Shown: in pieces, positions 232-64,000 of the stretch
Position numbering within the stretch: the stretch's first letter is position 1
Layout: each line of letters begins with the position of its first letter
Assembly: GCA_963675665.1 (NCBI GenBank)
Contig: OY776510.1
Location: 4,416,001 to 4,480,000, forward strand
From: Spirochaetia bacterium
GTDB taxonomy: Bacteria; Spirochaetota; Spirochaetia; UBA9216
DNA length: 64,000 nt
Direction: 5' to 3'
Program-made: the position numbers and the translations under genes
The notes under the pieces: generated by a model
What the model saw: the letters and a program-made list of their open reading frames with translations, nothing else
Database searches by the model: none
What the model was told of the DNA's origin: nothing

Positions 232-1506
232 CATAGCTGTCCAAAACAATCATAACAGCTCCATTTGAAGTTTTAAGCCTGGCTCATTTCTGCCGGGCGG
301 CGGTAGTTTATTCAGAATATTCCAGAGATCTTTTCTGGTCGTCAGGATTGATGGAAGCAATTTCATAAGCGAATAATGAGTCCATCCACCGGAAGATAAC
401 ATCTTCAGATATTGCAGCATCAGATGAGTTATCAATGCTATCCAGATCTGAGTCATTACTGCATTTTTCGTCGTTCCAAAAAACTTCTTTATTTTCAGGT
501 TCTGTTTGATTGTTTTGAAGAATATTTCTATCTGCCATCTGTCCTTATAGACAGCAGCAACTGTTGTAGGTGCCCAATCAAGCTGATTTGTAAGAATTAC
601 AATATATTTTCCTGTTTCCGGATCTTTTATTCTAATTCGCCGTAATTGGAGTGGACACTTCTTGCTGGTGTAGTATCCTCGCATTTCAATTATTTGATCT
701 GATGAAATATTTTCATATTTTGAAACATTATTTCTTTGAAAAACTTTATAATCTGCATTCTTTTTCATACGAGTAATAAAATAAATGCCTGCAATACAAT
801 AACTTGCAAATAATTTGAAATCTGTATAGGCCCGATCGAATGCAACTACATCACCTTTATTGAATTTCATTTTCTTGAGTGAATTAAGCTCATGGGTTTG
901 AGCTGTTGTAACAGATACAAAGTCCGGAATATATCCGCTGTGATCAAGTTTTACATTAAGTTTGATTCCGCCTTTATTCTTTCTAAACTTCGCCCATGGA
1001 AATACTGACAGGCATAAATCGATGGTTGTCGCATCAACACTGTACAGCGGATTTTTAAATCTATGCTTATGAGACCTTTTCATTTTAAGGATCTTTGTCA
1101 GCAGGTTATTGAATACATTTTCATAAATTTCTGAGGGTCTGTTGTTATTTGCATAGGAAAGTGTTGAGCGTTTAATCTTTTTTACCCCCAAATGATAAAG
1201 CATGTTTTTAATCGAATCCAATGCTGTTTCTATGCCTCTAAGTCCGGTCTGTCCTGTAAATTGGGCAAACAGCATTGAAACAAATTGTTCCCAACAGGAG
1301 AATCCTTTTGAAGCAAAATCTCCTTTATACTTTCTGACAGATCTTTCAAATTCATGTCTCGGAATGATTTGAAGTATCTGATTTAAAATGCTATTCTTAT
1401 AACTCATTGCCTGTTTTCCTTCCGTTGTAATGATTTAAGCTTGCCCGCTCAATTCATTATAACCAGGGATTCAGGCTATTAATAGTCCTTATTTTGGACA
1501 GCTATG
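232..1506 (-). mobile_element. IS4-family element, copy 1 (1275 bp)
   Basis: Terminal IR CATAGCTGTCCAAAA; 9-bp TSD ATTAATTAT at 223-231 and 1507-1515. Confidence 0.95.
250..1407 (-). CDS. IS4-family DDE transposase (DUF4372-type N-terminus)
   Basis: VDATTID, FDRAY and YKDRWQIEIFFK motifs. Confidence 0.93.
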   Translation of the reverse strand: MSYKNSILNQILQIIPRHEFERSVRKYKGDFASKGFSCWEQFVSMLFAQFTGQTGLRGIETALDSIKNMLYHLGVKKIKRSTLSYANNNRPSEIYENVFNNLLTKILKMKRSHKHRFKNPLYSVDATTIDLCLSVFPWAKFRKNKGGIKLNVKLDHSGYIPDFVSVTTAQTHELNSLKKMKFNKGDVVAFDRAYTDFKLFASYCIAGIYFITRMKKNADYKVFQRNNVSKYENISSDQIIEMRGYYTSKKCPLQLRRIRIKDPETGKYIVILTNQLDWAPTTVAAVYKDRWQIEIFFKTIKQNLKIKKFFGTTKNAVMTQIWIALITHLMLQYLKMLSSGGWTHYSLMKLLPSILTTRKDLWNILNKLPPPGRNEPGLKLQMELL

Positions 1507-2874: not shown

Positions 2875-3013
2875 ACATAACGACGTTTTGAGTAGCAAAA
2901 TTGTTCCGCGTCTCCGCGGAATTGGCGCGATTCTGGAGTGAGGCCCATTGGCCGAACGTCTTTAGCCAGAATCGTGACAATAAATTTTGACTACTCCAAA
3001 TCTCTTGTTATGA
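2875..3013 (-). repeat. attC site 2
   Basis: ACATAAC...GTTATGA. Confidence 0.9.
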
Positions 3014-3035
3014 ATATTCCTTTTTCTTAATAAAT

Positions 3036-3275
3036 TTCTTCGATTCTTCGATTCTTCGATTCTTCGATTCTTCGATTCTTCGATTCTTCGATTCTTCGAT
3101 TCTTCGATTCTTCGATTCTTCAATTCTTCAATTCTTCGATTCTTCGATTCTTCGATTCTTCGATTCTTCGATTCTTCGATTCTTCGATTCTTCGATTCTT
3201 CAATTCTTCAATTCTTCAATTCTTCAATTCTTCAATTCTTCAATTCTTCAATTCTTCAATTCTTCAATTCTTCAA
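3036..3275. repeat. Octamer tandem repeat, 30 units of TTCTTC(G/A)A
   Basis: Counted as 10 CGA, 2 CAA, 8 CGA, 10 CAA units. Confidence 0.95.
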
Positions 3276-3311
3276 TTAAAAGAATACGTATTTTATAAAA
3301 GCTTGTGTCTA

Positions 3312-3635
3312 CTACCGTAGTTGTCTTTTCATCAAAATTTCTTCAATATTTCTTCTTCCATCTATTATCGCCAATATCAAAATTCTATTTTCTTCAATTC
3401 GATACATCATTCGCCAGGGATTTACAATCATTTCTCTAAATTTCGTTATATTTTCATTTTGTAATTCTGGAATAATTCTTCCTTGTTTGGGAAAGGCTGC
3501 AATTTCTTTAGCTGTTTCTTTTATTCTTTCATATTGCTTTATTGCTATATCTACAGAATCTGCTGCTATATAGGTGATTATTTCATCTAAATCATTTAAG
3601 GCGGGTTTTGTCCAAATTACTTTATTATTACCCAT
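3312..3635 (-). CDS. RelE/ParE-family toxin
   Basis: VIWTKPALNDLDEI...FPKQGRIIPE...WRMMYRI...IDGRR. Confidence 0.88.
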   Translation of the reverse strand: MGNNKVIWTKPALNDLDEIITYIAADSVDIAIKQYERIKETAKEIAAFPKQGRIIPELQNENITKFREMIVNPWRMMYRIEENRILILAIIDGRRNIEEILMKRQLR

Positions 3636-4119: not shown

Positions 4120-5329
4120 TGTTTAGTGAGAGTATTTCCCTGACACTCACCCCGAAAAATATATAATTTCATTATGCGGCAGTGCCGCCATTGTCCTCGT
4201 CTTTTTCTACTTCCTCAAGGAATACCTGAAAGGGTATTCTACCCTTCATATTGCGTCCTTGATGTGCTCGTTCATTATTGTAGTACTCCAGAAACTTATC
4301 CAGATCTTCCTGCATCTCAGATAATGATTCGTAATATTTTTCACGACCTTTAATTCTAAAATGCTCATCAAGTAAAGTTCTGTGAAGCCGCTCAACAAAT
4401 CCATTACTTTGCGGTCTGCAGACCTTTGTTGTCCTATGCTCTATATCTTCAAGCTGAAGGAATAATTCGAAAGGATGATGGTCCGGTCTTCCGCAGTACT
4501 CACGTCCATTGTCGGTAAGCACATTCTTAACCTTCACATTATGTTCCTCGAAAAAAGGCAGAACATCATTATTTATTACCTGAACTGCAGTCACCGGCAG
4601 CTTATTTGTATACAGCCTTCCCCAGGCATGACGACTATGACAATCAATCACTGTTTGTAAATATATTTTCCCTATTCCTTTCAGATGTCCGACCATAAAG
4701 GTATCTATCGAAACGAGATAACCAGTATGCTTTGTTTCGATGTGTCTCTCTCTGAACTCAGGATTAAATCTTTCAAGTAGTTTTATCTGGTCATCATTAA
4801 GCTTGAATTTTTTGTTCTTCAATTTTTCTTCCAAGCGTAAAAGTCGCTGGTGGCGGGTTTCCATTTTATGTCTAACCCATACTCCACGGACCCCGCCGGA
4901 GCTTACATTCACACCCTTCAAAGCAAGCTGCTGAGAAACTCTCAGACAACCATGAGTTGGGAACTCCAAACTATAATCCAGAATCTCTTTTTCAATTTCA
5001 GGTGCTACTCGATTTGGATGTGGATTCCGTGGTCCTGGTAAGCTGTCGATTAATCCCTGAGATCCGTAGGTTTGATAATTACGTCTTATCTCATAAAATT
5101 GCTGCCGGGAATAACCCATAATTCGACATGCCTTACTTACATTTCCTAAATCTTCTGCAAGCTCTAACATACTCATCTTTCGTCTCGCAGCTTTCTGTGC
5201 TACAGTCTTGTTGGTGGCCATTTGCTCCTCCTGATAAATGTTTTTGTGGTGAAATCATTATATCTTTCGGAGGTGTTTTGGCCACCTATTTTTTAGCCAA
5301 CTGTCAGGTTAATACGATCACTGTTCACA
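4120..5329 (-). mobile_element. IS481-family element inserted in the attC end
   Basis: TGT...ACA ends; imperfect IR AGTGAGAGTATTTCCCTGACA vs AGTGATCGTATTAACCTGACA; target duplication TTTGT (CATTTGT if the right end is 5327). Confidence 0.88.
4172..5221 (-). CDS. IS481-family transposase
   Basis: N-terminal HTH (NVSKACRIMG); rve core DTF / TDNGREY / PQSNGFVERLH. Confidence 0.93.
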   Translation of the reverse strand: MATNKTVAQKAARRKMSMLELAEDLGNVSKACRIMGYSRQQFYEIRRNYQTYGSQGLIDSLPGPRNPHPNRVAPEIEKEILDYSLEFPTHGCLRVSQQLALKGVNVSSGGVRGVWVRHKMETRHQRLLRLEEKLKNKKFKLNDDQIKLLERFNPEFRERHIETKHTGYLVSIDTFMVGHLKGIGKIYLQTVIDCHSRHAWGRLYTNKLPVTAVQVINNDVLPFFEEHNVKVKNVLTDNGREYCGRPDHHPFELFLQLEDIEHRTTKVCRPQSNGFVERLHRTLLDEHFRIKGREKYYESLSEMQEDLDKFLEYYNNERAHQGRNMKGRIPFQVFLEEVEKDEDNGGTAA

Positions 5330-5348
5330 TTTGTTATATTTTTGTCTT

Positions 5349-6671
5349 TCATAATAAGTTTTCAATATCATCAAGTGATAATTTCTCATATTCAATATCA
5401 TATCCTGGATATTTCATTATTAAATTCTTTGCTTTTTCCTTTAATTTTTCCATTTTTATCTTATCTTTATTTATCTTTACTTCTGTAATTATCAACTTCT
5501 TTTCAATTTCATCTATTGCAACTATATCTATTTCATTCTTATTTCCTTTTTCCCAATATGTACCTATCAATCCGAGATTAGGATTTTCTTTTTTTATCTC
5601 GATAAACAATTTTTCTAAAATTGGTCCAGAATATGTACTTAAATCTTTTTCTATAATTTTCTTTATTAATTCATATCGTTCATCCTCTATTAGCCTTATA
5701 TTTTTATAAATATATCTAAACCAGAATTTTATAAAATTATCCTTTACTCCATACTTTTGACTTTTTCCATTTTTCTTACTTCCAACTGGTTTTATTTTTT
5801 CAATTACATCATATTCTACTTCTAACTTTTCTAAATACCCGCCTATACTTTTTTCTAATATGGATTCTATTTCACTTCGAGAAGTACGCCCAACTGAAAT
5901 CATCTCCAATATTGAAAAATATATTCCATAATCCTTTCCAAATTCTTGAATTAATAAATTCTTTCCTTCTCCTATAAAAAAAGAGTCCTTTTCCAATATC
6001 AAATCAAGTATTTTATCAAAGCTATAACATTTTTCTTTTACCAATATTTCTTGGTATCTTGGCACTCCACCTGTTATTAAATAATTATAAAAAAGATTTT
6101 CTTTGCTGTAAGCATTATTATCAATTAATATTTCTTTTATAACATTCACTTCAAACGGTTTTATATATAAAATTCTATCTGCCCTTCCATATAAAGGTTC
6201 TTTCGAATTTTGAAAGATTCGTATCATCATTGAGTATATCGAACCTATAAATATTACATGGACTTTTGTATCAAATTTATATTTATCCCATAAATTTTGT
6301 ATTTCTGAATAAATACTCGAATTTATATTATTAAACTCCTGAAACTCATCTATTATTAATACATAAGGATTGTCTTTTCCAAATTTCAATAATTGCTCGA
6401 ATAACTTTGTGAAACTCTTTACTTCTCCAATTATTTCCTGATCAGTAAATTTTTCATATTCTTCTTTCAATTCTTCACACAATAACGGTTCAGCTTTTTT
6501 ACTTGTAAAGAAATATAGGTGCTTTTTATCTTTGGCAAATTCTTTTGATAACAGTGTTTTCCCTACACGACGTCTACCTGTTAAAACAGTTATTGCTCCG
6601 TATGATTCTTCACATTTCGAGTATATATCGTTTAATATTGTTAATTCTTTATCACGGTCATAAAACCGCAT
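5349..6671 (-). CDS. ATPase_2 (archaeal-type AAA) + DUF234 PD-(D/E)XK-fold protein
   Basis: FYDRDKEL; Walker A GRRRVGKT; Walker B IIDEFQ; C-terminal EIDIVA..EVK. Confidence 0.88.
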   Translation of the reverse strand: MRFYDRDKELTILNDIYSKCEESYGAITVLTGRRRVGKTLLSKEFAKDKKHLYFFTSKKAEPLLCEELKEEYEKFTDQEIIGEVKSFTKLFEQLLKFGKDNPYVLIIDEFQEFNNINSSIYSEIQNLWDKYKFDTKVHVIFIGSIYSMMIRIFQNSKEPLYGRADRILYIKPFEVNVIKEILIDNNAYSKENLFYNYLITGGVPRYQEILVKEKCYSFDKILDLILEKDSFFIGEGKNLLIQEFGKDYGIYFSILEMISVGRTSRSEIESILEKSIGGYLEKLEVEYDVIEKIKPVGSKKNGKSQKYGVKDNFIKFWFRYIYKNIRLIEDERYELIKKIIEKDLSTYSGPILEKLFIEIKKENPNLGLIGTYWEKGNKNEIDIVAIDEIEKKLIITEVKINKDKIKMEKLKEKAKNLIMKYPGYDIEYEKLSLDDIENLL

Positions 6672-10071: not shown

Positions 10072-11346
10072 CATAGCTGTCCAAAATAAGGACTATTAAT
10101 AGCCTGAATCCCTGGTTATAATGAATTGAGCGGGCAAGCTTAAATCATTACAACGGAAGGAAAACAGGCAATGAGTTATAAGAATAGCATTTTAAATCAG
10201 ATACTTCAAATCATTCCGAGACATGAATTTGAAAGATCTGTCAGAAAGTATAAAGGAGATTTTGCTTCAAAAGGATTCTCCTGTTGGGAACAATTTGTTT
10301 CAATGCTGTTTGCCCAATTTACAGGACAGACCGGACTTAGAGGCATAGAAACAGCATTGGATTCGATTAAAAACATGCTTTATCATTTGGGGGTAAAAAA
10401 GATTAAACGCTCAACACTTTCCTATGCAAATAACAACAGACCCTCAGAAATTTATGAAAATGTATTCAATAACCTGCTGACAAAGATCCTTAAAATGAAA
10501 AGGTCTCATAAGCATAGATTTAAAAATCCGCTGTACAGTGTTGATGCGACAACCATCGATTTATGCCTGTCAGTATTTCCATGGGCGAAGTTTAGAAAGA
10601 ATAAAGGCGGAATCAAACTTAATGTAAAACTTGATCACAGCGGATATATTCCGGACTTTGTATCTGTTACAACAGCTCAAACCCATGAGCTTAATTCACT
10701 CAAGAAAATGAAATTCAATAAAGGTGATGTAGTTGCATTCGATCGGGCCTATACAGATTTCAAATTATTTGCAAGTTATTGTATTGCAGGCATTTATTTT
10801 ATTACTCGTATGAAAAAGAATGCAGATTATAAAGTTTTTCAAAGAAATAATGTTTCAAAATATGAAAATATTTCATCAGATCAAATAATTGAAATGCGAG
10901 GATACTACACCAGCAAGAAGTGTCCACTCCAATTACGGCGAATTAGAATAAAAGATCCGGAAACAGGAAAATATATTGTAATTCTTACAAATCAGCTTGA
11001 TTGGGCACCTACAACAGTTGCTGCTGTCTATAAGGACAGATGGCAGATAGAAATATTCTTCAAAACAATCAAACAGAACCTGAAAATAAAGAAGTTTTTT
11101 GGAACGACGAAAAATGCAGTAATGACTCAGATCTGGATAGCATTGATAACTCATCTGATGCTGCAATATCTGAAGATGTTATCTTCCGGTGGATGGACTC
11201 ATTATTCGCTTATGAAATTGCTTCCATCAATCCTGACGACCAGAAAAGATCTCTGGAATATTCTGAATAAACTACCGCCGCCCGGCAGAAATGAGCCAGG
11301 CTTAAAACTTCAAATGGAGCTGTTATGATTGTTTTGGACAGCTATG
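10072..11346 (+). mobile_element. IS4-family element, copy 2
   Basis: Same IRs as copy 1; TSD ATTTTCTCT at 10063-10071 and 11347-11355. Confidence 0.95.
10171..11328 (+). CDS. IS4-family transposase
   Basis: Protein identical to 250-1407. Confidence 0.93.
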   Translation: MSYKNSILNQILQIIPRHEFERSVRKYKGDFASKGFSCWEQFVSMLFAQFTGQTGLRGIETALDSIKNMLYHLGVKKIKRSTLSYANNNRPSEIYENVFNNLLTKILKMKRSHKHRFKNPLYSVDATTIDLCLSVFPWAKFRKNKGGIKLNVKLDHSGYIPDFVSVTTAQTHELNSLKKMKFNKGDVVAFDRAYTDFKLFASYCIAGIYFITRMKKNADYKVFQRNNVSKYENISSDQIIEMRGYYTSKKCPLQLRRIRIKDPETGKYIVILTNQLDWAPTTVAAVYKDRWQIEIFFKTIKQNLKIKKFFGTTKNAVMTQIWIALITHLMLQYLKMLSSGGWTHYSLMKLLPSILTTRKDLWNILNKLPPPGRNEPGLKLQMELL

Positions 11347-12278: not shown

Positions 12279-12343
12279 AATCTTATTTATCGGCCCTACT
12301 CTCCATACTGCTATAAAGAAAATTGCACCCAATCTAATCATAC

Positions 12344-12485
12344 ATTTAACGACAATTTTAGCTGCCTGGCGGCGCGAGTCTTTCGAGCACATTGGCGTGA
12401 TTCTGGAGTGGAGCGCGATCAGCGCGAAACGTCTTTAGCCAGAATCATGACAATAGCCAGGACTGTTACAAATTTCATGTTTTGT
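12344..12485 (-). repeat. attC site 7 (allele of the ORF-less cassette)
   Basis: ATTTAAC...GTTTTGT. Confidence 0.9.
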
Positions 12486-12969
12486 GTAACGGCCCCATAC
12501 TCACTACTTTCATCTACATTCATAATTATCCTTTTTCTTACTTTGCCCCTTCTTTACCCAGCGTTCTCGCTGGGTTCATCCCAATTAATCATACAACGAT
12601 TTCCTCTTTGTAGGTATTTTTATTTTTAAACAATAACTACTGTTCTGTTTCTTAACATTTTACTTCTTCATTTCCGTAATATTCATTTTAAACATTTGGC
12701 CGCTAAAATTTTACGCAGGTTAGCTGTGATTTTTTTGAGAAGCTTAAAATAGGACATAGATACGAATACGTTTCACGTCGGAGGTTATGGGAAACTATCG
12801 AAAACAGGATGATTAACTCCATAAACTTCTTTATTCAACCTGCAAATTATTGTTCTATCAAAGAACTAAATCAAATATTTTCTTTTTAATATGTTTTTCA
12901 CTTATGTGTCATTTTAAACGGGAACCGTATAAAATCTTTATTTTAGCCTAATTCTCTTTTACACAAAAC
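12479..12969 (-). other. ORF-less gene cassette, copy 1
   Basis: Bounded by GTTTTGTGTAA and TTACACAAAAC; no credible CDS; near-identical to 24537-25027 and 29242-29731. Confidence 0.88.
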
Positions 12970-13101
12970 GACGATTTGAGTAGCAAAATTGATCGGCGTC
13001 TTCGCCGAATTGGCGCGATTCTGGAGTGAGGGCCATTGCCCGAACGTCTTCAGCCAGAATCGTGACAATAAATTTTGACTACTCCAAATCTCTTGTTTGT
13101 T
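12963..13101 (-). repeat. attC site 8
   Basis: ACAAAAC...GTTTGTT. Confidence 0.87.
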
Positions 13102-13120
13102 TAGTAAGCATCTAATTTTT

Positions 13121-14206
13121 TTAAATCTTTCTTATATGATCACATATTTTAGCATATGCTTTCTCATAATAAAAAAAGTGTAAACATTGATTAGTACCAA
13201 GCTCAACTCCAAACCTATCCATCTGAACAAGATCGTAGAGACAACCACCATTACATAAACTAAAATATTTACAAATTTTGCATTTATTTCTTATTTCTAT
13301 TTCAATATTTTTATAATGTTCAATCCCTCTTGACTCGATATTTTCTTTAAAATTATCTAAATTATACTCCATTTTTAAAAAATTAAAATTATCAAACTTA
13401 TCACAGTGCGATATTAATCCATCATTATTTATAGTAAAATATTTACCAACACAATTTTGACCTTCATGACATAATCTTGGCTTGTTTTCAAATAAAATAT
13501 CAATCTTGCTTTCAAATTCTCTTAATTCAATCTCTTTATATTTATCACTTATTATTAAATCTATAAACTTATTCAAATATTTTTTAACTTTAGCAATATA
13601 AATTAAATACTCTTCTCTATTATTAAAACACAGTCTTAATGGTAATAATGCTATTTTGTAAATTCTATTTTCTTTAAGAAAATCTAATAATTCTACTGGT
13701 TTAGTATCCAATAATTCATTAGAAAGGACTGATAGAATACCAAATTTCTTAGTATTATCATTAACTATTTTTAGATTTTTTATAATAATTTCCGAACTCT
13801 TATTTCCATCAGGAAATATTCTATTTATATCATGAATTTGCATCAATCCATCAAAACTTATACCAATATTAAAATAATTCTCATTTAAAAAAGTTACAAA
13901 TTGTTTGGATAGTAAAGTACCATTAGTTTGAATAGAGTTGTATATTTCTTTTTTTATATATTTCTTCTGATCTTTAATTATTCTCTCATAAAACTCTTGT
14001 CCTAAAAGTAAAGGCTCTCCTCCATGCCAAATAAAATTAATTTTTTTTATCCAATACATAGAGTTTAGTACTTTAAATAATGAAATTAATAAACTACGTT
14101 CAATTTCTTTTGAATTATTATCTCGTTCAAAACAGTACTTACAATTTAAATTACACTTTCTAGTGGTTTTAATAATAAATGAAATATTGTCAGATTGTCT
14201 ATTCAT
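13121..14206 (-). CDS. Radical SAM/SPASM enzyme, probable peptide maturase
   Basis: CNLNCKYC; WHGGEPLL; QTNG; SPASM cysteines CHEGQNC...C...CKICKYFSLCNGGC...C. Confidence 0.88.
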   Translation of the reverse strand: MNRQSDNISFIIKTTRKCNLNCKYCFERDNNSKEIERSLLISLFKVLNSMYWIKKINFIWHGGEPLLLGQEFYERIIKDQKKYIKKEIYNSIQTNGTLLSKQFVTFLNENYFNIGISFDGLMQIHDINRIFPDGNKSSEIIIKNLKIVNDNTKKFGILSVLSNELLDTKPVELLDFLKENRIYKIALLPLRLCFNNREEYLIYIAKVKKYLNKFIDLIISDKYKEIELREFESKIDILFENKPRLCHEGQNCVGKYFTINNDGLISHCDKFDNFNFLKMEYNLDNFKENIESRGIEHYKNIEIEIRNKCKICKYFSLCNGGCLYDLVQMDRFGVELGTNQCLHFFYYEKAYAKICDHIRKI

Positions 14207-14634
14207 TTAAATTTTTTAAATAATTTTAATTCCTCCTCATTTAAATCATCTATTAATACTGATCTAATCTCTAAATTCTCATTTTGAATGGAAATTGTAT
14301 TTTGTAATGGTAATTCATCATCAGTCCAAGAATTATCCCAGCATTCACCAAATCCTCCATCTGAATGACACCATCCATTTGTATAACTTTCTGCGACTTC
14401 TCCACCATCCGTTAACGGAAGATTTACAATCTTTCTAATCGATTCTGGAATTGTAGTGCCTTTTTGAATCGATATAGTTCTAATTAATTTTATACTTTCA
14501 TGGTCGTTAACGACATCTCCAACAGTTCTTCCAATTCTATTAGTTATAACATCTTCTGAATTCTTATCAACAAAGTTGCTTTTATTTTCGATCATTTTTA
14601 TAACTTTTCTTATTCTTTTACTTAAATCTGCCAT
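14203..14634 (-). CDS. Putative RiPP precursor with an internal aromatic-rich core
   Basis: GGAGG RBS; 4-bp overlap with the rSAM gene; segment YTNGWCHSDGGFGECWDNSWTDD. Confidence 0.65.
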   Translation of the reverse strand: MADLSKRIRKVIKMIENKSNFVDKNSEDVITNRIGRTVGDVVNDHESIKLIRTISIQKGTTIPESIRKIVNLPLTDGGEVAESYTNGWCHSDGGFGECWDNSWTDDELPLQNTISIQNENLEIRSVLIDDLNEEELKLFKKFK

Positions 14635-15056
14635 AGGACCCTCCATAATTTTTAATTGGATACATACTAGAGCAAAACAACTATTTTCTTATAAAAATTA
14701 TAACCCTATATAAGAAATATGTCATTATTTTTTAAAAAACCTACGCCACTTGTTTAAACGAAGTATCCTATATATCTATCATTTTTAGGCTATCTAAAGC
14801 CCAATTTTATAATACACAATCTCAATATTTTTATCATTTTAATGATATCAAAGTAAATGTTATTTAAATCCTTATAAAACTTACATTTATTGATTTATAA
14901 TTTTGTAAGAATTCATTAAGTTCTCTTATATTTATATCTCTTTAAGCAAATATCTTATCTCAAAACTGTCTTTTTATCTTATTCCTCTTTATTTCTGATT
15001 ATTTACCCTATTATTAAAAAACTGTACACAAAGCTGTCTGACTATACTCGCTTTAC

Positions 15057-15195
15057 ATTTAACGACGTTTTGAGTAGCAAAATCGGCCGAGTCTTCGAGG
15101 CTTGGCGCGTGTTTTTGCATAGCTTTTTACCTCTACCCTACTTTTCTGCAAAAACCGTGACAAAGATTTTGACTACTCCAAAACTCATGTTATAC
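15057..15195 (-). repeat. attC site 9 (variant inner stem)
   Basis: ATTTAAC...GTTATAC. Confidence 0.9.
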
Positions 15196-15202
15196 GGATT
15201 TT

Positions 15203-15493
15203 CTATACTTTTTCTAATAATTTCCCAGAAACATATTTATGCAATATCATTGATACCAGAGTTTGATATGGTAAGCCTTCTTCCATTGCTTTTATCTTCA
15301 AATTCTTCAAATCTCTTTCTGATATTCTTATATTCATCCTTTTATCTTTTTTCATCGTAGCTTCAGCATATCTTTTTGCTTGAAGCCTATATTCTTCACT
15401 TTCTTCTATTTCTTCCCATTCACCTTTCTCAAGTGAATTCATTAAATCGCGTTCTTCTTCATCTATCGGAGTACACATATTTTTATCTTTCAT
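15203..15493 (-). CDS. Antitoxin with C-terminal RHH (BrnA/CopG-like)
   Basis: RMNIRISERDL..LK.KA.EEGLPYQTL. Confidence 0.85.
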   Translation of the reverse strand: MKDKNMCTPIDEEERDLMNSLEKGEWEEIEESEEYRLQAKRYAEATMKKDKRMNIRISERDLKNLKIKAMEEGLPYQTLVSMILHKYVSGKLLEKV

Positions 15494-15777
15494 TCCTTTC
15501 CTCCATTCTTCAATAATTTCTTTGTATATTCCCTACTCGGGTATATCGTCTTTAGAAATATCTCTTTATCTTCTTTATTTTCAACAAAAGGCACTACATA
15601 TATATAATCATTATAATTGATTAGATAAATTTTCTGATTTCCATATTTTTCTTCATTTGGATGCTTTAAGACTTTTACAACTTTTCCTTCAGAAATACAC
15701 AATATAATTTCTTCAAATGAAAAATTGCGTTGTTCCTTCAGTATTTCATTCTTTTCATCATTCCAATTATATGTCAT
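15490..15777 (-). CDS. BrnT-like toxin
   Basis: WNDEKNEILK..RNFSFEE...FLKTIYPSR. Confidence 0.82.
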   Translation of the reverse strand: MTYNWNDEKNEILKEQRNFSFEEIILCISEGKVVKVLKHPNEEKYGNQKIYLINYNDYIYVVPFVENKEDKEIFLKTIYPSREYTKKLLKNGGKE

Positions 15778-16054: not shown

Positions 16055-17134
16055 TTACATCTTCAATATTTCCATTAATTTCTTATTAATGAATATATTC
16101 TCCCTTCCTACTTTTTCTAATTCTAATATTCCTATTTCAGATAGTTGATGCAAATATCGGGATGCTGCTTTTCGTTCTATTCCTATAGAATTTACTATGA
16201 ATTCAACTTTACAGTATGGGTTTTCAAAAAGAGTCTCTACCAATTCTTTTGTATAAATTTTTGAAGCTTTCTCTTTTACTTCATCTATTGTCTTATCCAA
16301 TAATTCTCTAATTTTCTTAATTTTATCAATCGTTTCTATTGCTGTCTGCTTTACTCCCTCAAGAATGTATAATAGCCATTCTTCCCATTCATCTTCAGAA
16401 GTAACTTTTCTTAACAATCGATAATATTCATTTTTATTCTTAATGATGTATGAACTCAAATACAGAATAGGTATTTCAAGATATTCTTTCAATAATAGGT
16501 ATAATACATTTAATATTCTTCCAGTTCTGCCATTTCCATCATGAAACGGATGTATGCTCTCAAATTGATAATGAATTATTCCCATTTTTATCAATGATGA
16601 TTCACCATCATTTAAATATTCGAATAAATTCTTCAACAGTTTATATATAATTTCAACTTCATCTGGTGGGGAGTAGACTATCTCTCTCGTTTTATCATTA
16701 TATAATCTGGTTCCTGGTGTTTTTCTTATACCTGAATCATTTTTCAACAAGATCTCTTGTATCTCGATAATTTCTTTTTCTGAGATGTATCCTTTTTCTT
16801 CTATTCTTTTATATCCCCAATTTAATGCTTCTCGATAGTACATCACTTCCTTTGTTGCATGATCTACACTTTTACTACTTGATATCGCCTGATACAATTC
16901 ATCTCTTGTTGTTATAATATTCTCAATTTCAGAACTATCTTTTGCTTCTTGAAGAATTATTGCATTAATTAATATAGATTGATTAGGAATAATATTGGCT
17001 ATACCTTTCAATTCTGCAAGTGAAGCGCGAGCTTCACTTTCCTTCTTCCATAATTCTAATGTCGCACATTTTGATTTATCTGGTGGTATTAGAGGAAGGT
17101 CATTAAACGGAATATCTGCTTTAAAACTACTCAT
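16055..17134 (-). CDS. Fic-family protein (Fic_N + Fic + HTH)
   Basis: Inhibitory motif SSEIEN; catalytic HPFHDGNGRTGR. Confidence 0.92.
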   Translation of the reverse strand: MSSFKADIPFNDLPLIPPDKSKCATLELWKKESEARASLAELKGIANIIPNQSILINAIILQEAKDSSEIENIITTRDELYQAISSSKSVDHATKEVMYYREALNWGYKRIEEKGYISEKEIIEIQEILLKNDSGIRKTPGTRLYNDKTREIVYSPPDEVEIIYKLLKNLFEYLNDGESSLIKMGIIHYQFESIHPFHDGNGRTGRILNVLYLLLKEYLEIPILYLSSYIIKNKNEYYRLLRKVTSEDEWEEWLLYILEGVKQTAIETIDKIKKIRELLDKTIDEVKEKASKIYTKELVETLFENPYCKVEFIVNSIGIERKAASRYLHQLSEIGILELEKVGRENIFINKKLMEILKM

Positions 17135-17340
17135 ATGTACCATTTTACTATATTTTCGGTCACATCACAAGCTATTTGTACTTATATCCAATATTTTGGT
17201 ACACATACAGTTTTTATGTGCATCCCATGCACATGACATTTCATTCATGTACACGTTTTTCTTTTCTTTGTACATGTCAAGCTAATCATGTCCTCATTTT
17301 CAGCTTTTAAGGACATTTAAGCCGATTATTTTTTTGTTAA

Positions 17341-18836: not shown

Positions 18837-20111
18837 CATAGCTGTCCAAAATAAGGACTATTAATAGCCTGAATCCCTGGTTATAATGAATTGAGCGGGC
18901 AAGCTTAAATCATTACAACGGAAGGAAAACAGGCAATGAGTTATAAGAATAGCATTTTAAATCAGATACTTCAAATCATTCCGAGACATGAATTTGAAAG
19001 ATCTGTCAGAAAGTATAAAGGAGATTTTGCTTCAAAAGGATTCTCCTGTTGGGAACAATTTGTTTCAATGCTGTTTGCCCAATTTACAGGACAGACCGGA
19101 CTTAGAGGCATAGAAACAGCATTGGATTCGATTAAAAACATGCTTTATCATTTGGGGGTAAAAAAGATTAAACGCTCAACACTTTCCTATGCAAATAACA
19201 ACAGACCCTCAGAAATTTATGAAAATGTATTCAATAACCTGCTGACAAAGATCCTTAAAATGAAAAGGTCTCATAAGCATAGATTTAAAAATCCGCTGTA
19301 CAGTGTTGATGCGACAACCATCGATTTATGCCTGTCAGTATTTCCATGGGCGAAGTTTAGAAAGAATAAAGGCGGAATCAAACTTAATGTAAAACTTGAT
19401 CACAGCGGATATATTCCGGACTTTGTATCTGTTACAACAGCTCAAACCCATGAGCTTAATTCACTCAAGAAAATGAAATTCAATAAAGGTGATGTAGTTG
19501 CATTCGATCGGGCCTATACAGATTTCAAATTATTTGCAAGTTATTGTATTGCAGGCATTTATTTTATTACTCGTATGAAAAAGAATGCAGATTATAAAGT
19601 TTTTCAAAGAAATAATGTTTCAAAATATGAAAATATTTCATCAGATCAAATAATTGAAATGCGAGGATACTACACCAGCAAGAAGTGTCCACTCCAATTA
19701 CGGCGAATTAGAATAAAAGATCCGGAAACAGGAAAATATATTGTAATTCTTACAAATCAGCTTGATTGGGCACCTACAACAGTTGCTGCTGTCTATAAGG
19801 ACAGATGGCAGATAGAAATATTCTTCAAAACAATCAAACAGAACCTGAAAATAAAGAAGTTTTTTGGAACGACGAAAAATGCAGTAATGACTCAGATCTG
19901 GATAGCATTGATAACTCATCTGATGCTGCAATATCTGAAGATGTTATCTTCCGGTGGATGGACTCATTATTCGCTTATGAAATTGCTTCCATCAATCCTG
20001 ACGACCAGAAAAGATCTCTGGAATATTCTGAATAAACTACCGCCGCCCGGCAGAAATGAGCCAGGCTTAAAACTTCAAATGGAGCTGTTATGATTGTTTT
20101 GGACAGCTATG
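18837..20111 (+). mobile_element. IS4-family element, copy 3
   Basis: Same IRs; TSD ATATAATAT at 18828-18836 and 20112-20120. Confidence 0.95.
18936..20093 (+). CDS. IS4-family transposase
   Basis: Protein identical to the other two copies. Confidence 0.93.
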   Translation: MSYKNSILNQILQIIPRHEFERSVRKYKGDFASKGFSCWEQFVSMLFAQFTGQTGLRGIETALDSIKNMLYHLGVKKIKRSTLSYANNNRPSEIYENVFNNLLTKILKMKRSHKHRFKNPLYSVDATTIDLCLSVFPWAKFRKNKGGIKLNVKLDHSGYIPDFVSVTTAQTHELNSLKKMKFNKGDVVAFDRAYTDFKLFASYCIAGIYFITRMKKNADYKVFQRNNVSKYENISSDQIIEMRGYYTSKKCPLQLRRIRIKDPETGKYIVILTNQLDWAPTTVAAVYKDRWQIEIFFKTIKQNLKIKKFFGTTKNAVMTQIWIALITHLMLQYLKMLSSGGWTHYSLMKLLPSILTTRKDLWNILNKLPPPGRNEPGLKLQMELL

Positions 20112-24091: not shown

Positions 24092-24401
24092 TAAAAGGAC
24101 TTTTAATTTTTTCATAATATGAAGAAAGTATACTTTATGTTTATAAATTTATCAATTTATAAATTTACACTATAGCAAGCAATAGATTTTAATACTCTAT
24201 CTAAAAGCAAATTATTAAAAGATGATATCCTAAAATATACTTAAATCTATTAATAAGCCCGCCATGGACGGCGGGCTCTTCCTTAAACAATCCCAACCAT
24301 GACAAAAATTGCGTCTAACGTTGCGGGAATATAAAACGTTTTTATTTTTCTAATTGATTCTACCACACCCATCATTTTCCCGAAACTGAAAAATCCCGTG
24401 C

Positions 24402-24543
24402 ATTTAACGACAATTTTAGCTGCCTGGCGGCGCGAGTCTTTCGAGCACATTGGCGTGATTCTGGAGTGGAGCGCGATCAGCGCGAAACGTCTTTAGCCAG
24501 AATCATGACAATAGCCAGGACTGCTACAAATTTCATGTTTTGT
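24402..24543 (-). repeat. attC site 15 (allele of the ORF-less cassette)
   Basis: ATTTAAC...GTTTTGT. Confidence 0.9.
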
Positions 24544-25027
24544 GTAACGGCCCCATACTCACTACTTTCATCTACATTCATAATTATCCTTTTTCTTACT
24601 TTGCCCCTTCTTTACCCAGCGTTCTCGCTGGGTTCATCCCAATTAATCATACAATGATTTCCTCTTTGTAGGTATTTTTATTTTTAAACAATAACTACTG
24701 TTCTGTTTCTTAACATTTTACTTCTTCATTTCCGTAATATTCATTTTAAACATTTGGCCGCTAAAATTTTACGCAGGTTAGCTGTGATTTTTTTGAGAAG
24801 CTTAAAATAGGACATAGATACGAATACGTTTCACGTCGGAGGTTATGGGAAACTATCGAAAACAGGATGATTAACTCCATAAACTTCTTTATTCAACCTG
24901 CAAATTATTGTTCTATCAAAGAACTGAATCAAATATTTTCTTTTTAATATGTTTTTCACTTATGTGTCATTCTAAACGGGAACCATATAAAATCTTTATT
25001 TTAGCCCAATTCTCGTTTACACAAAAC
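24537..25027 (-). other. ORF-less gene cassette, copy 2
   Basis: Near-identical to 12479-12969. Confidence 0.88.
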
Positions 25028-29026: not shown

Positions 29027-29106
29027 ATTATTATTTTATCACTAAATGCATATCCTTGCAACTTTTTATACTTTCTAAAAGTATATTATAACCATTTCTT
29101 AACTCT

Positions 29107-29248
29107 GTATAACGACAATTTTAGCTGCCTGGCGGCGCGAGTCTTTCGAGCGCATTGGCGTGATTCTGGAGTGCAGCGCGATCAGCGCGAAACGTCTTTA
29201 GCCAGAATCATGACAATAGCCAGGACTGCTACAAATTTCATGTTTTGT
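29107..29248 (-). repeat. attC site 18 (allele of the ORF-less cassette)
   Basis: GTATAAC...GTTTTGT. Confidence 0.9.
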
Positions 29249-29731
29249 GTAACGACCCCATATCAACTACTTTCTTTTATCTTAACAGTATCCTTTTTAT
29301 TACTTTGCTCCTTCTTTACCCAGCGTTCTTGCTGGGTTCATCCCAATTAATCATACAACGATTTCCTCTTTGCAGGTATTTTTATTTTTAAACAATAACT
29401 ACTGTTCTGTTTCTTAACATTTTACTTCTTCATTTCCGTAATATTCATTTTAAACATTTGGCCGCTAAAATTTTACGCAGGTTAGCTGTGATTTTTTTGA
29501 GAAGCTTAAAATAGGACATAGATACGAATACGTTTCACGTCGGAGGTTATGGGAAACTATCGAAAACAGGATGATTAACTCCATAAACTTCTTTATTCAA
29601 CCTGCAAATTATTGTTCTATCAAAGAACTGAATCAAATATTTTCTTTTTAATATGTTTTTCACTTATGTGTCATTCTAAACGGGAACCATATAAAATCTT
29701 TATTTTAGCCCAATTCTCGTTTACACAAAAC
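29242..29731 (-). other. ORF-less gene cassette, copy 3 (slightly diverged near its attC)
   Basis: Matches copies 1 and 2 except mainly the first ~70 bp. Confidence 0.88.
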
Positions 29732-34037: not shown

Positions 34038-35192
34038 ATGCGTTACAGAGAACCTTTTACACTATTTCTCAGGAAGTTACCCTCAGGTAAGCGAATTTGG
34101 TACTATCAGACATACGATAAAAATAACAAACGTACCAGCGCTTTTTCTACAGGGAAGAAATCAAAGACAGCAGCTAAGGCCTATTGCTTTGATTTATTAA
34201 AAAAGGATTTGCTGATCCCAATAAGACTCAGAAGGATAAACTTTATGAAATATTCTGAAAACTGGTGGCTTTGGGATGAATGCGAATATCTGAATTATCT
34301 CAAAAAGAGAAAAACGATTTCAAAATCATATGCACATACCGCGAGGGTAATGCTTGGAAAGCATATACTGCCATACTTTGAAAAAAAGTACTTATCAGAC
34401 ATCACACCGTATGATATCGAGAAATGGCTTGATACTTTTACGGCTAAGGGACTTTCAAACGCGACTGCCAACCTCGGATTAGCATTCTTAAAAATAATGC
34501 TCAAAGAAGCCGTCAGACGCGAATTGATTACTGACGATCCTTCAAGTTCAATTATGCCGCTTAAAACAGAATCAGTAGAGCGAGGGGTTCTTTCCCAGGA
34601 TGAAGTTTCAAAATTATTTGACCTTGTGAATAAAAAGCAAATATGGGCCAATGATATTTATTATTATGCAAATCTCTTATCTGCCTGCACCGGCATGCGG
34701 CTTGGCGAAGTCCTTGCTGTACGCGGCGAAGTACTTAAAGAAAATCATATTCTTGTTGACAAGCAATTTACAAAAAACTTCGGGCTCACTGATACTAAGT
34801 CACACCATGCAAGAAAGGTAATTATCCCTGAACAGTTAATGACCGAGCTTGTAAATTTTTCTGAACAGAATAAAGGCGGGTATGTCTTTTCAACCGACGG
34901 CGGAAAGCTTCCGGTATACCCTGACACATTAAGACGCTCATTATTCAAGGCATTCAAGGCTATTGGAATTGATGATGAGCAAAGACGCGAACGAAACATC
35001 TGCTTTCACAGCTGGCGTCACTACCTGAACACAACTCTTAGAAGTAATAATATCACAGATGGAAAGCTAAGAGCGCTTGTCGGCCATGCATCATCCAAGA
35101 TGACCGAACACTATACTCATTTTGACACTGATGATTTTAAGGACATTCAGGAAATCCAGAATAAAATAATAAATTTTAAAAAAGTAGGGTAA
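34038..35192 (+). CDS. Tyrosine recombinase / phage-type integrase
   Basis: TGMRLGE (R), TK (K), FHSWRH (HxxR), VGH, HY (Y); N-terminal arm-binding-like region; no recognisable IntI-specific insertion. Confidence 0.93.
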   Translation: MRYREPFTLFLRKLPSGKRIWYYQTYDKNNKRTSAFSTGKKSKTAAKAYCFDLLKKDLLIPIRLRRINFMKYSENWWLWDECEYLNYLKKRKTISKSYAHTARVMLGKHILPYFEKKYLSDITPYDIEKWLDTFTAKGLSNATANLGLAFLKIMLKEAVRRELITDDPSSSIMPLKTESVERGVLSQDEVSKLFDLVNKKQIWANDIYYYANLLSACTGMRLGEVLAVRGEVLKENHILVDKQFTKNFGLTDTKSHHARKVIIPEQLMTELVNFSEQNKGGYVFSTDGGKLPVYPDTLRRSLFKAFKAIGIDDEQRRERNICFHSWRHYLNTTLRSNNITDGKLRALVGHASSKMTEHYTHFDTDDFKDIQEIQNKIINFKKVG

Positions 35193-61445: not shown

Positions 61446-61583
61446 GTTTAACGACGTTTTGAGTAGCGAAACCGGCCGAGTCTTCGAGGCTTGGCGCAGT
61501 TCTGGAACGTAGCGCGATCAGCGCGGAGTGTCTCTGCCAGAACTGTGACAAAGGTTTTGACTACTCCAAATCTCTTGTTATAC
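61446..61583 (-). repeat. attC site 22 (also the right junction of the integrative element)
   Basis: GTTTAAC...GTTATAC. Confidence 0.9.
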
Positions 61584-61708
61584 GGATATTTTACTATGTT
61601 TTTAAGGTTTACAGGATGTTTTATTTCTTCAGGATTCAAATTTCTTACATTCTTAAATTTCTAATAATTCTTATTAATAATAGCGATTTTGATACAATAG
61701 AATATGAT

Positions 61709-61963
61709 TTAATAATGATATCGACAGGCAATGATTCTTATAAATTTTTCTTCTACTTCATATACAAGACGATGTTCTTGATCAATTCTACGAGACCAAC
61801 ATCCTTGCAATTGATATTTTAAAGGTTCAGGTTTACCAATTCCTTCAAATGGATTTCTTCTTATATCTTTTATTAATTCATTAATTCTTCTTAAATTCTT
61901 TTTATCATTCTTTTGCCAGTATAGATAATCATCCCAGGATTCAGGCGTAAATAGTAAATTCAT
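61709..61963 (-). CDS. yoeB: Txe/YoeB toxin
   Basis: WDDYLYWQ; PFEGIGKPEPLK; WSRRIDQEHRLVY; CRYHY. Confidence 0.95.
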   Translation of the reverse strand: MNLLFTPESWDDYLYWQKNDKKNLRRINELIKDIRRNPFEGIGKPEPLKYQLQGCWSRRIDQEHRLVYEVEEKFIRIIACRYHY

Positions 61964-62214
61964 TCTTCTATTAATTCTTTCTTAATAGTATTTCCAGATC
62001 TGGCTGATTCAAGAGATTTCATCAAATGATCAGCATTTTTCTTAGATGATAAAAGATATTGAGTCTCTGTAAGACTGTTGTAATCATCTAATGAAATCAT
62101 CACTAAATTCTCATTATCTTTTCTTGTGATAATAAGAGGTTCATGATCCTGATAAACTTGATCCATATGAGCCTTTAAATTTCGTCTTAGATCTGAATAA
62201 TTAACAGCTTCCAT
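61960..62214 (-). CDS. yefM: YefM antitoxin
   Basis: NYSDLRRNLK...IITRK...ETQYLLSS..NA. Confidence 0.93.
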   Translation of the reverse strand: MEAVNYSDLRRNLKAHMDQVYQDHEPLIITRKDNENLVMISLDDYNSLTETQYLLSSKKNADHLMKSLESARSGNTIKKELIEE

Positions 62215-62357
62215 AAGTACAATATATAGTACTTATAAATGTACGTCAACTATTTTATCAATTAAAGATATGAAACCAATTAATGGGGTTTAATCCATAA
62301 ATTAATCCCAATTGACTCACATTTTCAAGATTAGGCTGTAAAGATACACGATATTCC

Positions 62358-62503
62358 GTATAACGACAATTTGAGCTGCGCCCTCGATCCTGGAGCGAAG
62401 CGGAAGGAATTGGCGTGATTCTGGAACGTAGCGCGATCAGCGCGGAGTGTCTCCGCCAGAATCATGACAATAGACGGCGACTGCTCCAAATTTTTTGTTA
62501 AAT
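62358..62503 (-). repeat. attC site 23
   Basis: GTATAAC...GTTAAAT. Confidence 0.9.
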
Positions 62504-62616
62504 ACCTACGATGTTAATACATATTAGAAAAATAAGGATATTCAAATTTCTTCTCATTTTCTTCATAGCTGAAAGTTTTGTGTCATTAGTCCAAAGACAA
62601 GGATGTCTTTGGATCT

Positions 62617-62889
62617 TCAGACTATCGCTATTCTTACTTCCTTTCCCAATGCCTTTGCTACTTTTTCTATTGTTGATAGTTTTATATCTTCTGAATGATT
62701 TTCCATTCTTGATATCACACTCTTTGTTGTATGTATCCTTCTTGCTAATTCTTCCTGTGTTAATCCATTATTCTCTCTTGCTTCTCTCAAAAATACACCT
62801 ATTTTGAATTCTTCATATCCTTCCCAGAATTCCTCTTTACTTATTCCTTCTTTTTTTATTCTTTTATCAACATATTCATCTAGGTTCAT
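62617..62889 (-). CDS. HigA-like XRE antitoxin
   Basis: AR...GLTQEELA....TTKSVISRMEN. Confidence 0.88.
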   Translation of the reverse strand: MNLDEYVDKRIKKEGISKEEFWEGYEEFKIGVFLREARENNGLTQEELARRIHTTKSVISRMENHSEDIKLSTIEKVAKALGKEVRIAIV

Positions 62890-63238
62890 TATTCTTCCTC
62901 CTCAAATAATCTCTTCTATATTCTTCTGCTTGTTTTATCTCTTTTGCAGGTGTTTTTTGCGATTTCTTGATTATTCCATGCGTTAGCACAATCAGATTAT
63001 TTTTTTCCAAAAAACTAAATATTCTATAAATATTAGAACCAAATTTTATTCTTATTTCCCAAATTCCATCTGTAGATTCTAATTTCTTAAAATATGTTTT
63101 TGGAACTATATCTTTCTCTTCAATAATTTTGAAAGTCCATGCAATCTTCTTAACTATCTTTATTTCAAGATTATTTAGAAATTCTTCAACTGGACATCTT
63201 CCATTTTCTTTTTCATAGAAGATAATTTCTCGTTTCAT
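62876..63238 (-). CDS. HigB-like (Gp49/RelE) toxin
   Basis: FYE.ENG.CPVEEFL; IWEIR; LTHG..KKSQKTP; toxin-first gene order. Confidence 0.88.
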   Translation of the reverse strand: MKREIIFYEKENGRCPVEEFLNNLEIKIVKKIAWTFKIIEEKDIVPKTYFKKLESTDGIWEIRIKFGSNIYRIFSFLEKNNLIVLTHGIIKKSQKTPAKEIKQAEEYRRDYLRRKNNEPR

Positions 63239-63420
63239 ATAATCTATGTTAGCATACATGCTAACATATTTCAAGTATATATCCTCAAATAGCCATGGAT
63301 GGCTATTCTTCATCAATAAATTCTTTCAGCTCAGCTATCCCAACAATGGGAATTCTTTTATTTTTCTCATTTCATCCCAATAACACTTATCATTTTCCCA
63401 AAACTATTATATCTCTGTGT

Positions 63421-63558
63421 ATTTAACGACGATTTGAGTTGCCTTGTCACCGAGCATAGCGAGGTTCATTTATTTCTCAAACTATTAACATTTCTGAGTA
63501 TATGCTATCCCATATATAGTATTTATCAAAAAGGACAACTCCAAATCTCTTGTTAAAT
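63421..63558 (-). repeat. attC site 24 (divergent centre)
   Basis: ATTTAAC GACGATTTGAGTTG...CAACTCCAAATCTCTT GTTAAAT. Confidence 0.85.
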
Positions 63559-63627
63559 GCCTTATTCTTAACCAGACCGCACGGCGGAGCCAAGGGATGG
63601 TTTTATAGATACAAAATATATAATTTT

Positions 63628-63999: not shown

Positions 64000-64000
64000 T

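Follow-up and report, generated by a model that had tools for sequence, protein, structure and literature searches.

In triceptide pathways (OscB, XncB, MscB and YhhB) a SPASM-type radical S-adenosylmethionine (SAM) enzyme that lacks an RRE domain adjoins a precursor with repeated aromatic-x-polar triads, and the minimal two-gene versions of such loci often come without a protease or an exporter. XncB and OscB are described as linking Trp-x-Asn/Asp/Arg and Phe-x-Asn, via a bond between a ring carbon and the C-beta of the third residue (PMC11002830). Links from an aromatic residue i to residue i+2 are reported for DarE and DynA as well (PMC9055067; PMC11002830), and DarE is described as closest in sequence to anSME, yet cyclophane-forming (PMC10288494). 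The system analysed here is a pair of genes in the genome of a Spirochaetia bacterium (GTDB lineage UBA9216; assembly GCA_963675665.1, contig OY776510.1), located within a stretch of 64,000 nucleotides (genome positions 4,416,001-4,480,000) that is called the window below. The pair consists of an open reading frame (ORF) of 143 amino acids (aa), named ORF-A, and a radical SAM/SPASM gene, and together the two form the sole content of one 2,094-bp integron gene cassette on the minus strand. Judged by motifs and model scores, the pair resembles a triceptide or daropeptide pair, yet it reaches the threshold of no curated family. Like in the triceptide loci, an RRE-less SPASM enzyme adjoins a precursor with aromatic-x-polar triads, but the enzyme stays under all triceptide cut-offs and lies nearer to the anSME and Dar-type models, and the precursor differs in its length of around 140 aa, its internal core, its conserved follower and the lack of a curated family.

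We consider it probable, at roughly 60%, that the cassette encodes a self-contained substrate-enzyme pair in which the core of ORF-A would be stapled from residue i to residue i+2 in a cyclophane-type manner. The chemistry is the conjectural part of this reading: aryl-alkyl stapling from i to i+2 is favored because the triads of the family match the substrates of XncB and OscB, and because DarE and DynA make links of that kind. The features of the pair are the following.

14203..14634, minus strand: ORF-A, putative precursor/substrate gene, 143 aa, with GGAGG and a 5-nt spacer before the ATG at 14634
14320..14385, minus strand: core segment of ORF-A (residues 84-105), with the triads Y84-T-N, W88-C-H, F95-G-E, W99-D-N and W103-T-D, and with Cys89 and Cys98
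14206..14271, minus strand: C-terminal follower of ORF-A (residues ~122-143), conserved, with invariant E135, predicted to be helical
13121..14206, minus strand: putative radical SAM/SPASM maturase, 361 aa, matching Pfam PF04055 with 52.7 bits (cut-off 29.5)

ORF-A and its family

The TGA of ORF-A (14205-14203) and the ATG of the enzyme gene (14206-14204) overlap as ATGA, by which the enzyme gene is predicted to be translationally coupled to ORF-A. Together with the GGAGG in front of the ATG at 14634, this bears out the coupling that was proposed in an earlier reading of the stretch made without database searches (the sequence-only reading). The first ATG, at 14646, would yield an alternative form of 147 aa (14203..14646, minus strand); the form of 143 aa is the one present in the protein databases (P0001) and the residue numbering follows it. 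The protein can be divided into a leader (residues 1-83, net charge around +2), a core (84-105, net charge -4) and a follower (106-143, net charge -4). Every Trp (88, 99, 103), Cys (89, 98) and Tyr (84) falls within residues 84-105, as had been claimed for a segment drawn three bases longer (14317-14385), and the two cysteines stand in the contexts W-C-H-S-D and E-C-W-D-N. The five aromatic-X-X triads within these residues are the type of motif by which triceptide precursors are recognized, so that ORF-A would count as one on this basis. An AlphaFold2 model of ORF-A, made with the family alignment, has a mean pLDDT of 56, with helices at 2-16, 24-42 and 133-142 and a pLDDT below 50 for residues 90-126, including the second half of the core, which is more in keeping with a flexible substrate than with a folded domain.

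A word-indexed search with ORF-A alone recovered only ORF-A itself. The notion of an orphan was nevertheless rejected, as a full HMMER search and the mining of genomic neighborhoods recovered a family. More explicitly, the HMMER search against 1.84 billion representatives yielded six other proteins at E <= 1e-3, five of which were 141-176 aa long and had the core and the C-terminal motif in common, while the sixth (P0126) had a length of 786 aa. In addition, 80 genomic loci encoding relatives of the enzyme were collected and all their ORFs were searched with jackhmmer (E <= 1e-10). An ORF-A homolog was found directly upstream of the enzyme homolog and on the same strand in 17 of the 80 loci, and one locus (L007) contained two further copies that were borderline by hidden Markov model (HMM) (E 0.008 and 0.068) and alignable by eye. 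The hosts of the linked loci include Bacteroidota, Paracoccaceae and other Pseudomonadota, Actinomycetota, Chloroflexota, a Sumerlaeota bin and a Bathyarchaeia bin. As the same arrangement recurs in other phyla, the pairing of the ORF and the enzyme gene is not due to chance; a lack of such linkage had been named beforehand as an outcome that would speak against the pair. A search with the ORF-A profile added 24 further proteins; none of them contains a Pfam domain, and those that a source names are all called 'hypothetical protein'. ORF-A itself matched no family of Pfam, NCBIfam or PADLOC, and a scan of 15 family members gave no relevant Pfam or NCBIfam match. The precursor family thus is without a Pfam or NCBIfam model or a source name, and both the family and its layout of around 140 aa with a long leader, an internal core and a follower are absent from the libraries searched.

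The sequences of the family, of which 26 were aligned, share a helical leader, a core with a Trp-x-polar-x periodicity and a conserved C-terminal follower. The W99 column holds Trp in 26/26 and the column of residue 95 in 25/26. The latter column and those of G59, P63 and G78 are at least 90% conserved, and position 88 is Trp in 17/26. Among the 112 Trp-x-X triplets in the alignment, the third residue is R (36), N (18), D (18), Q (16), E (13) or K (5) in 106 cases; it is polar in 97%, against a background of 47% and against 45% at the middle position. From one Trp to the next, the distance is 4 in 51/86 cases. The aromatic segment is thus clearly conserved, as the sequence-only reading required. 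That reading also counted up to five crosslinkable motifs and two Cys. All of these are present in the ORF-A of the window, but only the triads 95-97 and 99-101 are conserved family-wide, and both Cys columns hold a Cys in only 9/26 sequences, confined to the subfamily of the window.

The distribution of the linked loci was compared with the phylogeny of the enzyme in a quick maximum-likelihood tree of 75 of the 81 enzyme rows (L004, L012, L018, L040, L046 and L049 were left out). The main split of this tree, with an SH-aLRT support of 96, places all 16 precursor-linked rows, that of the window included, on one side of 37 rows. The other side, of 38 rows, contains no linked row and includes the dynobactin-type enzymes of Photorhabdus and sulfatase-type enzymes of Vibrio and Bacteroidales. 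The enzyme of the window groups with those of L001 and L002 (support 99).

A second class of precursors, around 105-115 aa long, was observed upstream of the enzyme gene in eight loci (L020, L023, L028, L031, L034, L037, L038 and L061), in Desulfuromonadaceae, Thiohalomonadaceae, a Desulfobacteraceae bin and a Pedobacter bin, with enzymes of the same clade. These proteins have the invariant core Y-C-Q-N-W-x-R-C-x-N-G-W-G-K-C-T-P-D and a follower of the same type. Their HMM homology to ORF-A was not significant (E > 1), and in an hhalign comparison only the follower matched (23 columns, E 1.4e-4, probability 52%), on which grounds this YCQNW..GWGKC type was rejected as a full homolog. Since the follower is the sole element common to two precursor classes of one RRE-less enzyme clade, it is a candidate for the element by which the enzyme recognizes its substrate.

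Yet another arrangement was seen in five loci of Micrarchaeota (L027, L035, L054, L066 and L079), where peptides of around 40 aa that end in ..W-R-G-H-x-L-H-S-K are encoded upstream of the enzyme gene, and an acetyltransferase-like ORF follows. The peptides are not HMM-detectable homologs of ORF-A; these loci look like a minimal archaeal version of the system.

A Pfam scan of the 40 flanking ORFs in 15 linked loci revealed no protease, exporter or other common partner. The neighbors are heterogeneous and include hemerythrin, GH94, MFS, glycosyltransferase, OmpA and AraC proteins, among others. The lack of protease and exporter genes that was pointed out for the window therefore extends to the family.

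The enzyme and the proposed type of modification

The enzyme carries the CX3CX2C motif (C18/C22/C25) and the core fold by which it is assigned to the radical SAM superfamily. Like this motif, its cysteines 246, 252, 268, 309, 312, 318, 322 and 341, together with G263, are conserved among the aligned sequences, and they match the corresponding positions of anSME. They follow the pattern CX9-15GX4C...CX2CX5CX3C...C that characterizes SPASM domains, and two auxiliary clusters are thus predicted. The Pfam SPASM model (PF13186) gave no score on the enzyme of the window, and does score on most homologs. There is no N-terminal extension able to hold an RRE domain.

The sequence-only reading proposed to place the enzyme among the curated families by HMM, and in this comparison the anSME, Dar-type and triceptide models all matched it, each below its cut-off. 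The bit scores (cut-offs) were 172.6 (349.45) for anSME (TIGR03942), 166.9 (450) for DynA (NF041298), 154.4 (650) for DarW, 147.3 (650) for DarE (NF038005), 129.5 (310) for GrrM/OscB (TIGR04261), 122.1 (340) for PapB, 120.6 (445) for YhhB (NF041707), 87.7 (370) for FxsB/MscB (TIGR04269) and 77.1 (450) for XyeB/XncB (TIGR04496). The five homologs that were scanned likewise reached no curated NCBIfam cut-off. The nearest curated families are all modifiers of peptide or protein side chains. The best PDB match was anSME (4k37, E 3e-28), with residues 9-352 aligned, including the SPASM cysteines and C268-D269. The closest proteins, among 5.8 billion, were 39% and 37% identical, and the ESM Atlas gave no usable match.

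Considering that both the top NCBIfam and the top PDB match are anSME, and that the alignment runs from end to end, the enzyme might act on cysteine. In that case C89 and C98 would be converted into thioethers of the sactionine or ranthionine type, or into formylglycine, and ORF-A would become a Cys-modified protein comparable to that of the CrpA/CrpC system. An anSME also acts on a protein substrate without RRE, the model of the ranthipeptide enzyme PapB reaches the 122.1 bits given above, both Cys are conserved within the subfamily of the window (9/26), and the second precursor class has three invariant Cys among its Trp. We nevertheless regard this reading as unlikely, as these columns are without Cys in 17/26 family members, in contrast to the Trp columns with their full or nearly full conservation, and as all curated scores are far under their cut-offs. 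The substrate motif of anSME in sulfatases is C/S-x-P/A-x-R; ORF-A has no such context, the cassette has no sulfatase gene, and the partner of the enzyme is a protein with Trp motifs. Given this and the score of 172.6 against 349.45, the enzyme does not appear to be a member of the anSME family. QhpD, which modifies the gamma subunit of quinohemoprotein amine dehydrogenase, makes Cys thioethers in a protein-sized substrate as well, but its model scores only 66.5 on the enzyme against a cut-off of 453. That SPASM enzymes can add thioethers to substrates of protein size is also documented for CrpC (PMC13692751). As described there, CrpC acts on the small protein CrpA, needs no leader protease and has a product that stays a protein, as is proposed here; CrpC, however, makes Cys thioethers and has an RRE (PMC13692751), while Cys is dispensable in most members of the present family.

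The models next-best after anSME are those of DynA, DarW and DarE, and DarW is the best model for the wider members of the family (299 bits for P0012). This raises the question whether the linkage could be of the darobactin/dynobactin type, with C-N bridges or an ether (C-O-C, +14 Da), either of which might join one aromatic residue to the next. In the Trp-rich core on which DarE acts, ether links as well as C-C links are reported to form (PMC9055067). The darobactin and dynobactin enzymes are likewise described as anSME-like and as forming i-to-i+2 links in a Trp-rich core, and some of the precursors have a follower (PMC9055067; PMC10288494). The present core, however, lacks W-x-W, its Trp spacing is 4 and not 2, the scores remain far under the cut-offs of DarE (650) and DynA (450), and the dynobactin-type enzymes of Photorhabdus are found across the main split of the tree. 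Moreover, the system has no WNW-type core and no DarBCD-type transporter, and its precursor is three times longer. A linkage of this type is therefore quite improbable in our view.

The system of WprB and WprA, which is described (PMC11851443) as another enzyme lineage with a twitch domain and a separate partner protein, was considered and is not the family found here. A complex of the enzyme with three 4Fe-4S clusters, SAM and ORF-A was also predicted; made without controls, the prediction reached 0.30 at best against a mark of 0.32 and was counted neither way.

Full-text literature searches, which covered main texts, returned no publication on the precursor-enzyme family or on integron cassettes that hold a peptide pair of the radical SAM type. 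This is in line with the earlier suggestion that the architecture looks undescribed, with the proviso that the tables of the triceptide-landscape paper of 2022 in the Journal of the American Chemical Society, which lie outside that search, could list the clade.

The integron cassette and its surroundings

The bounds of the cassette follow from the alignment of the attC sites and from the boundary bases, and the spacing between the flanking sites, measured from start to start with an attC profile, is 2,094 as well. The features of the cassette that complement those of the gene pair are the following.

12969..15062, minus strand: integron gene cassette in full length (2,094 bp), which begins with the TT of the R' box upstream and ends with the G of the cassette's own R' box
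15054..15204, minus strand: upstream attC (nhmmer E 1.8e-31), of which the R' box GTTAAAT is the start of the cassette
14647..15053, minus strand: non-coding 5' region of the cassette, 407 bp, AT-rich (22.6% GC), with no ORF of at least 20 aa wholly inside
12960..13101, minus strand: the cassette's own attC (nhmmer E 4.7e-39), with the R' box GTTTTGT

The upstream site is the attC of the preceding cassette, which carries a BrnT/CopG-like toxin-antitoxin pair, and the cassette's own attC starts around 20 nt past the stop codon of the maturase gene. The attC repeats in the window are around 145 nt long and, in an alignment of 25 sites, have conserved minus-strand ends ..TAAC-AAGAG // ..CGTC-GTTA..; these ends, ..AAC..//..GTT.., are the R''/R' cores of attC. 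When folded as single strands, both flanking sites form long imperfect hairpins with bulged bases, of which the bottom strand is more stable than the top. For 12960-13101 the values are -38.9 kcal/mol for the bottom strand (z -8.1; none of 200 shuffles was as good) and -34.4 for the top strand, and for 15054-15204 they are -26.2 kcal/mol (z -5.1) and -20.8. The sites thus combine the R''/R' cores, the single-stranded fold and the unpaired bases of genuine attC sites. Between them and outside both genes there is no ORF of at least 20 aa that lies wholly inside, the few listed ones overlapping a gene or an attC, which confirms that the pair stands alone between two attC sites.

The 5' region contains one sigma-70-like match of 11 out of 12 positions, at 14725..14697, which is a candidate for a cassette-internal promoter from which the pair would be expressed. 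A regulatory RNA in this region was considered and rejected, as Rfam gave no match in the cassette region, and neither the 5' region nor the rest of the window showed a riboswitch or another RNA family.

Of the repeats in the window, 23 served to build a profile, which was searched against the genome of 5.15 Mb. This yielded 56 matches, 51 of which are co-oriented on the minus strand between 4,417,882 and 4,524,349. The gene of an integron integrase (TIGR02249, 392 bits against a cut-off of 265) is located at 4,525,383-4,526,315 on the plus strand, around 1 kb past the last attC, on the opposite strand and around 45 kb beyond the right end of the window. The cassette thus is part of a co-oriented attC array that adjoins an integrase gene. 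The array constitutes a very large sedentary chromosomal integron of around 107 kb, which within the window occupies 1882-32024 and 61447-64000 and then runs on to 4,524,349. The two parts are split by a stretch of around 29.4 kb (32025-61446) with a higher GC content of 38%, which holds a tyrosine recombinase gene (34038-35192, plus strand) and, at around 33879, half an attC with only the R' side; it looks like an integrative element that was inserted into the array. The recombinase was rejected as the integron integrase on the basis of its TIGR02249 score (40 bits versus 265) and its best PDB match, a lambda-type Int.

The GC content of the gene-pair cassette is 25.6%, compared with 43.3% for the genome. 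Integron integrases above the cut-off were found in 10 of the 20 relatives searched, among them three of the five of the same genus, and a fourth member of the genus gave a split integrase match below the cut-off. None of the 40 relatives searched yielded ORF-A, and ORF-A and the enzyme gene are both single-copy in the genome. Given this absence, the single copy and the low GC content, the pair is a cassette that is specific to the strain and foreign in its composition, within a lineage in which large chromosomal integrons are maintained. The stretch is represented in five DNA-type sequencing entries from two studies and in no listed RNA entry, which speaks neither for nor against its expression.

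The pair is not restricted to integrons, considering that the genomes of its nearest relatives (L001, L002 and L004) contain no integron integrase above the cut-off. Moreover, the attC profile matched none of the 80 loci, and no clear attC-like inverted repeats were seen at these three. The cassette setting of the sequence-only reading is correct for the window, but the pathway is not cassette-specific and the pair also occurs outside recognisable integrons. At L002, a Bacteroidetes bin with the closest homologous pair, direct repeats of around 200 nt (600-900, 1740-2080, 2940-3300 and 5110-5420) stand between one gene and the next and on both sides of the pair. This bin yielded no integron integrase, and the repeats could represent a different type of attC-like array or some other repeat element.

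Several other elements were observed in the array. The neighboring cassettes encode a BrnT-like/CopG-like toxin-antitoxin pair (15203-15777; weak Pfam scores) and a Fic/SoFic-like adenylyltransferase (16055-17143). A cassette of around 618 bp occurs in several copies that are 99-100% identical (12341-12960, 24400-25018 and 29105-29722), and the part of the array that lies beyond the window shows a spacing of 618-620 three more times. The cassette lacks an ORF of at least 40 aa on the cassette strand and may be a non-coding or small-peptide cassette that was repeatedly duplicated. Three ORFs of 385 aa lie inside the array (250-1407, minus strand; 10171-11328 and 18936-20093, plus strand). The one at 10171-11328 is a transposase with DUF4372 and DDE_Tnp_1, and in a comparison of 300 nt the copy at around 18825 shared 98% identity with it. 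Finally, at 2980-3330 around 40 tandem copies of an 8-bp unit (TTCGATTC / TTCAATTC) adjoin an attC and overlap the end of an ORF (3312-3635, minus strand).

Proposed mechanism and implications

According to the reading that we prefer, ORF-A would be a ribosomal precursor or small protein of 143 aa, and the co-translated enzyme, with one SAM cluster, two auxiliary clusters and no RRE, would act on its core. The enzyme is expected to bind ORF-A, probably through the follower and/or the leader. The 5'-deoxyadenosyl radical would then abstract a side-chain hydrogen from the polar residue at i+2, and the carbon radical thus formed would be joined to the aromatic ring of residue i, yielding a three-residue cyclophane staple. 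The most probable sites, and the first to react, would be F95-G-E97 and W99-D-N101, with Y84, W88 and W103 as possible further sites. Since no protease or exporter accompanies the pair in the family, the product would be either a stapled protein of around 140 aa that is kept in the cell, or a peptide freed by host proteases.

A number of observations weigh against this reading. The best HMM match of the enzyme is anSME, which oxidises Cys/Ser and is not a cross-linker. This similarity does not settle the chemistry, however, because DarE, which is also closest to anSME, makes cyclophanes. The motif counts are drawn from 26 sequences that are related by descent and do not represent independent events. 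Of the 37 rows on the precursor-linked side of the tree, 21 have no HMM-detectable ORF-A homolog and show other small upstream ORFs with a Trp core, as judged by eye. The enzyme of the window is the most divergent copy, with an end branch of 1.44 and no homolog more than 39% identical to it, and ORF-A has a Phe where the other family members have Trp at position 95 and lacks 8-9 core residues that its nearest relatives have. The divergence, the shorter core and the Phe for Trp imply that this copy could be decaying or could have shifted in specificity. The promoter scan of the 5' region gave 18 sites versus 17.5 +/- 4.4 in shuffles, which is not above chance, and the cassette is around the 44th of at least 51 counted from the integrase, some 94 kb from the integrase end of the array.

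According to another reading, ORF-A would be no substrate at all, but a partner or regulator in a two-component accessory module, for instance of the defence or toxin type that is typical of integron cassettes, and the enzyme would modify something else; alternatively, the cassette would be a functionless, decaying remnant. The BrnT/CopG-like and Fic genes of the neighboring cassettes, the lack of a protease or exporter linked to the pair, and the high divergence and AT-richness of a copy that was not found in 40 relatives are in line with this. Yet both frames are intact, all cofactor ligands are present, and the conserved part of ORF-A is a motif of the cross-link type and not a fold. The defence-system reading was rejected because PADLOC gave only a generic radical-SAM-core match of the enzyme to viperin models (56.7 bits) and none for ORF-A. 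We therefore hold both variants to be very unlikely, and return to the stapled substrate as the preferred reading.

A more far-reaching proposal is that the pair belongs to a distinct class of small proteins stapled by radical SAM enzymes, as opposed to a classical RiPP. In this class, an RRE-less, anSME-like SPASM enzyme would be guided by the follower, which otherwise unrelated precursor classes have in common, and would place a row of Trp-x-polar staples in an uncleaved, non-exported intracellular protein of around 140 aa; the module would circulate as an integron cassette for the reason that it takes only two genes. That the conserved unit comprises two genes fits a single cassette. The proposal as a whole is speculative and we are rather inclined to doubt it.

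If the preferred reading is correct, the radical-SAM cross-linked peptides would gain an uncurated family of enzymes and precursors with an unusual layout, in which the leader is long, the core internal and the follower conserved, and in which an RRE, a protease and an exporter are lacking. Through the follower that is common to both precursor classes, it could be tested how SPASM enzymes without an RRE locate their substrates. The preferred reading would further mean that integrons can store and move whole pathways of post-translational modification, beyond single resistance or toxin genes, and that environmental and metagenomic cassette arrays would be a practical mining ground for minimal, portable gene pairs that modify peptides.

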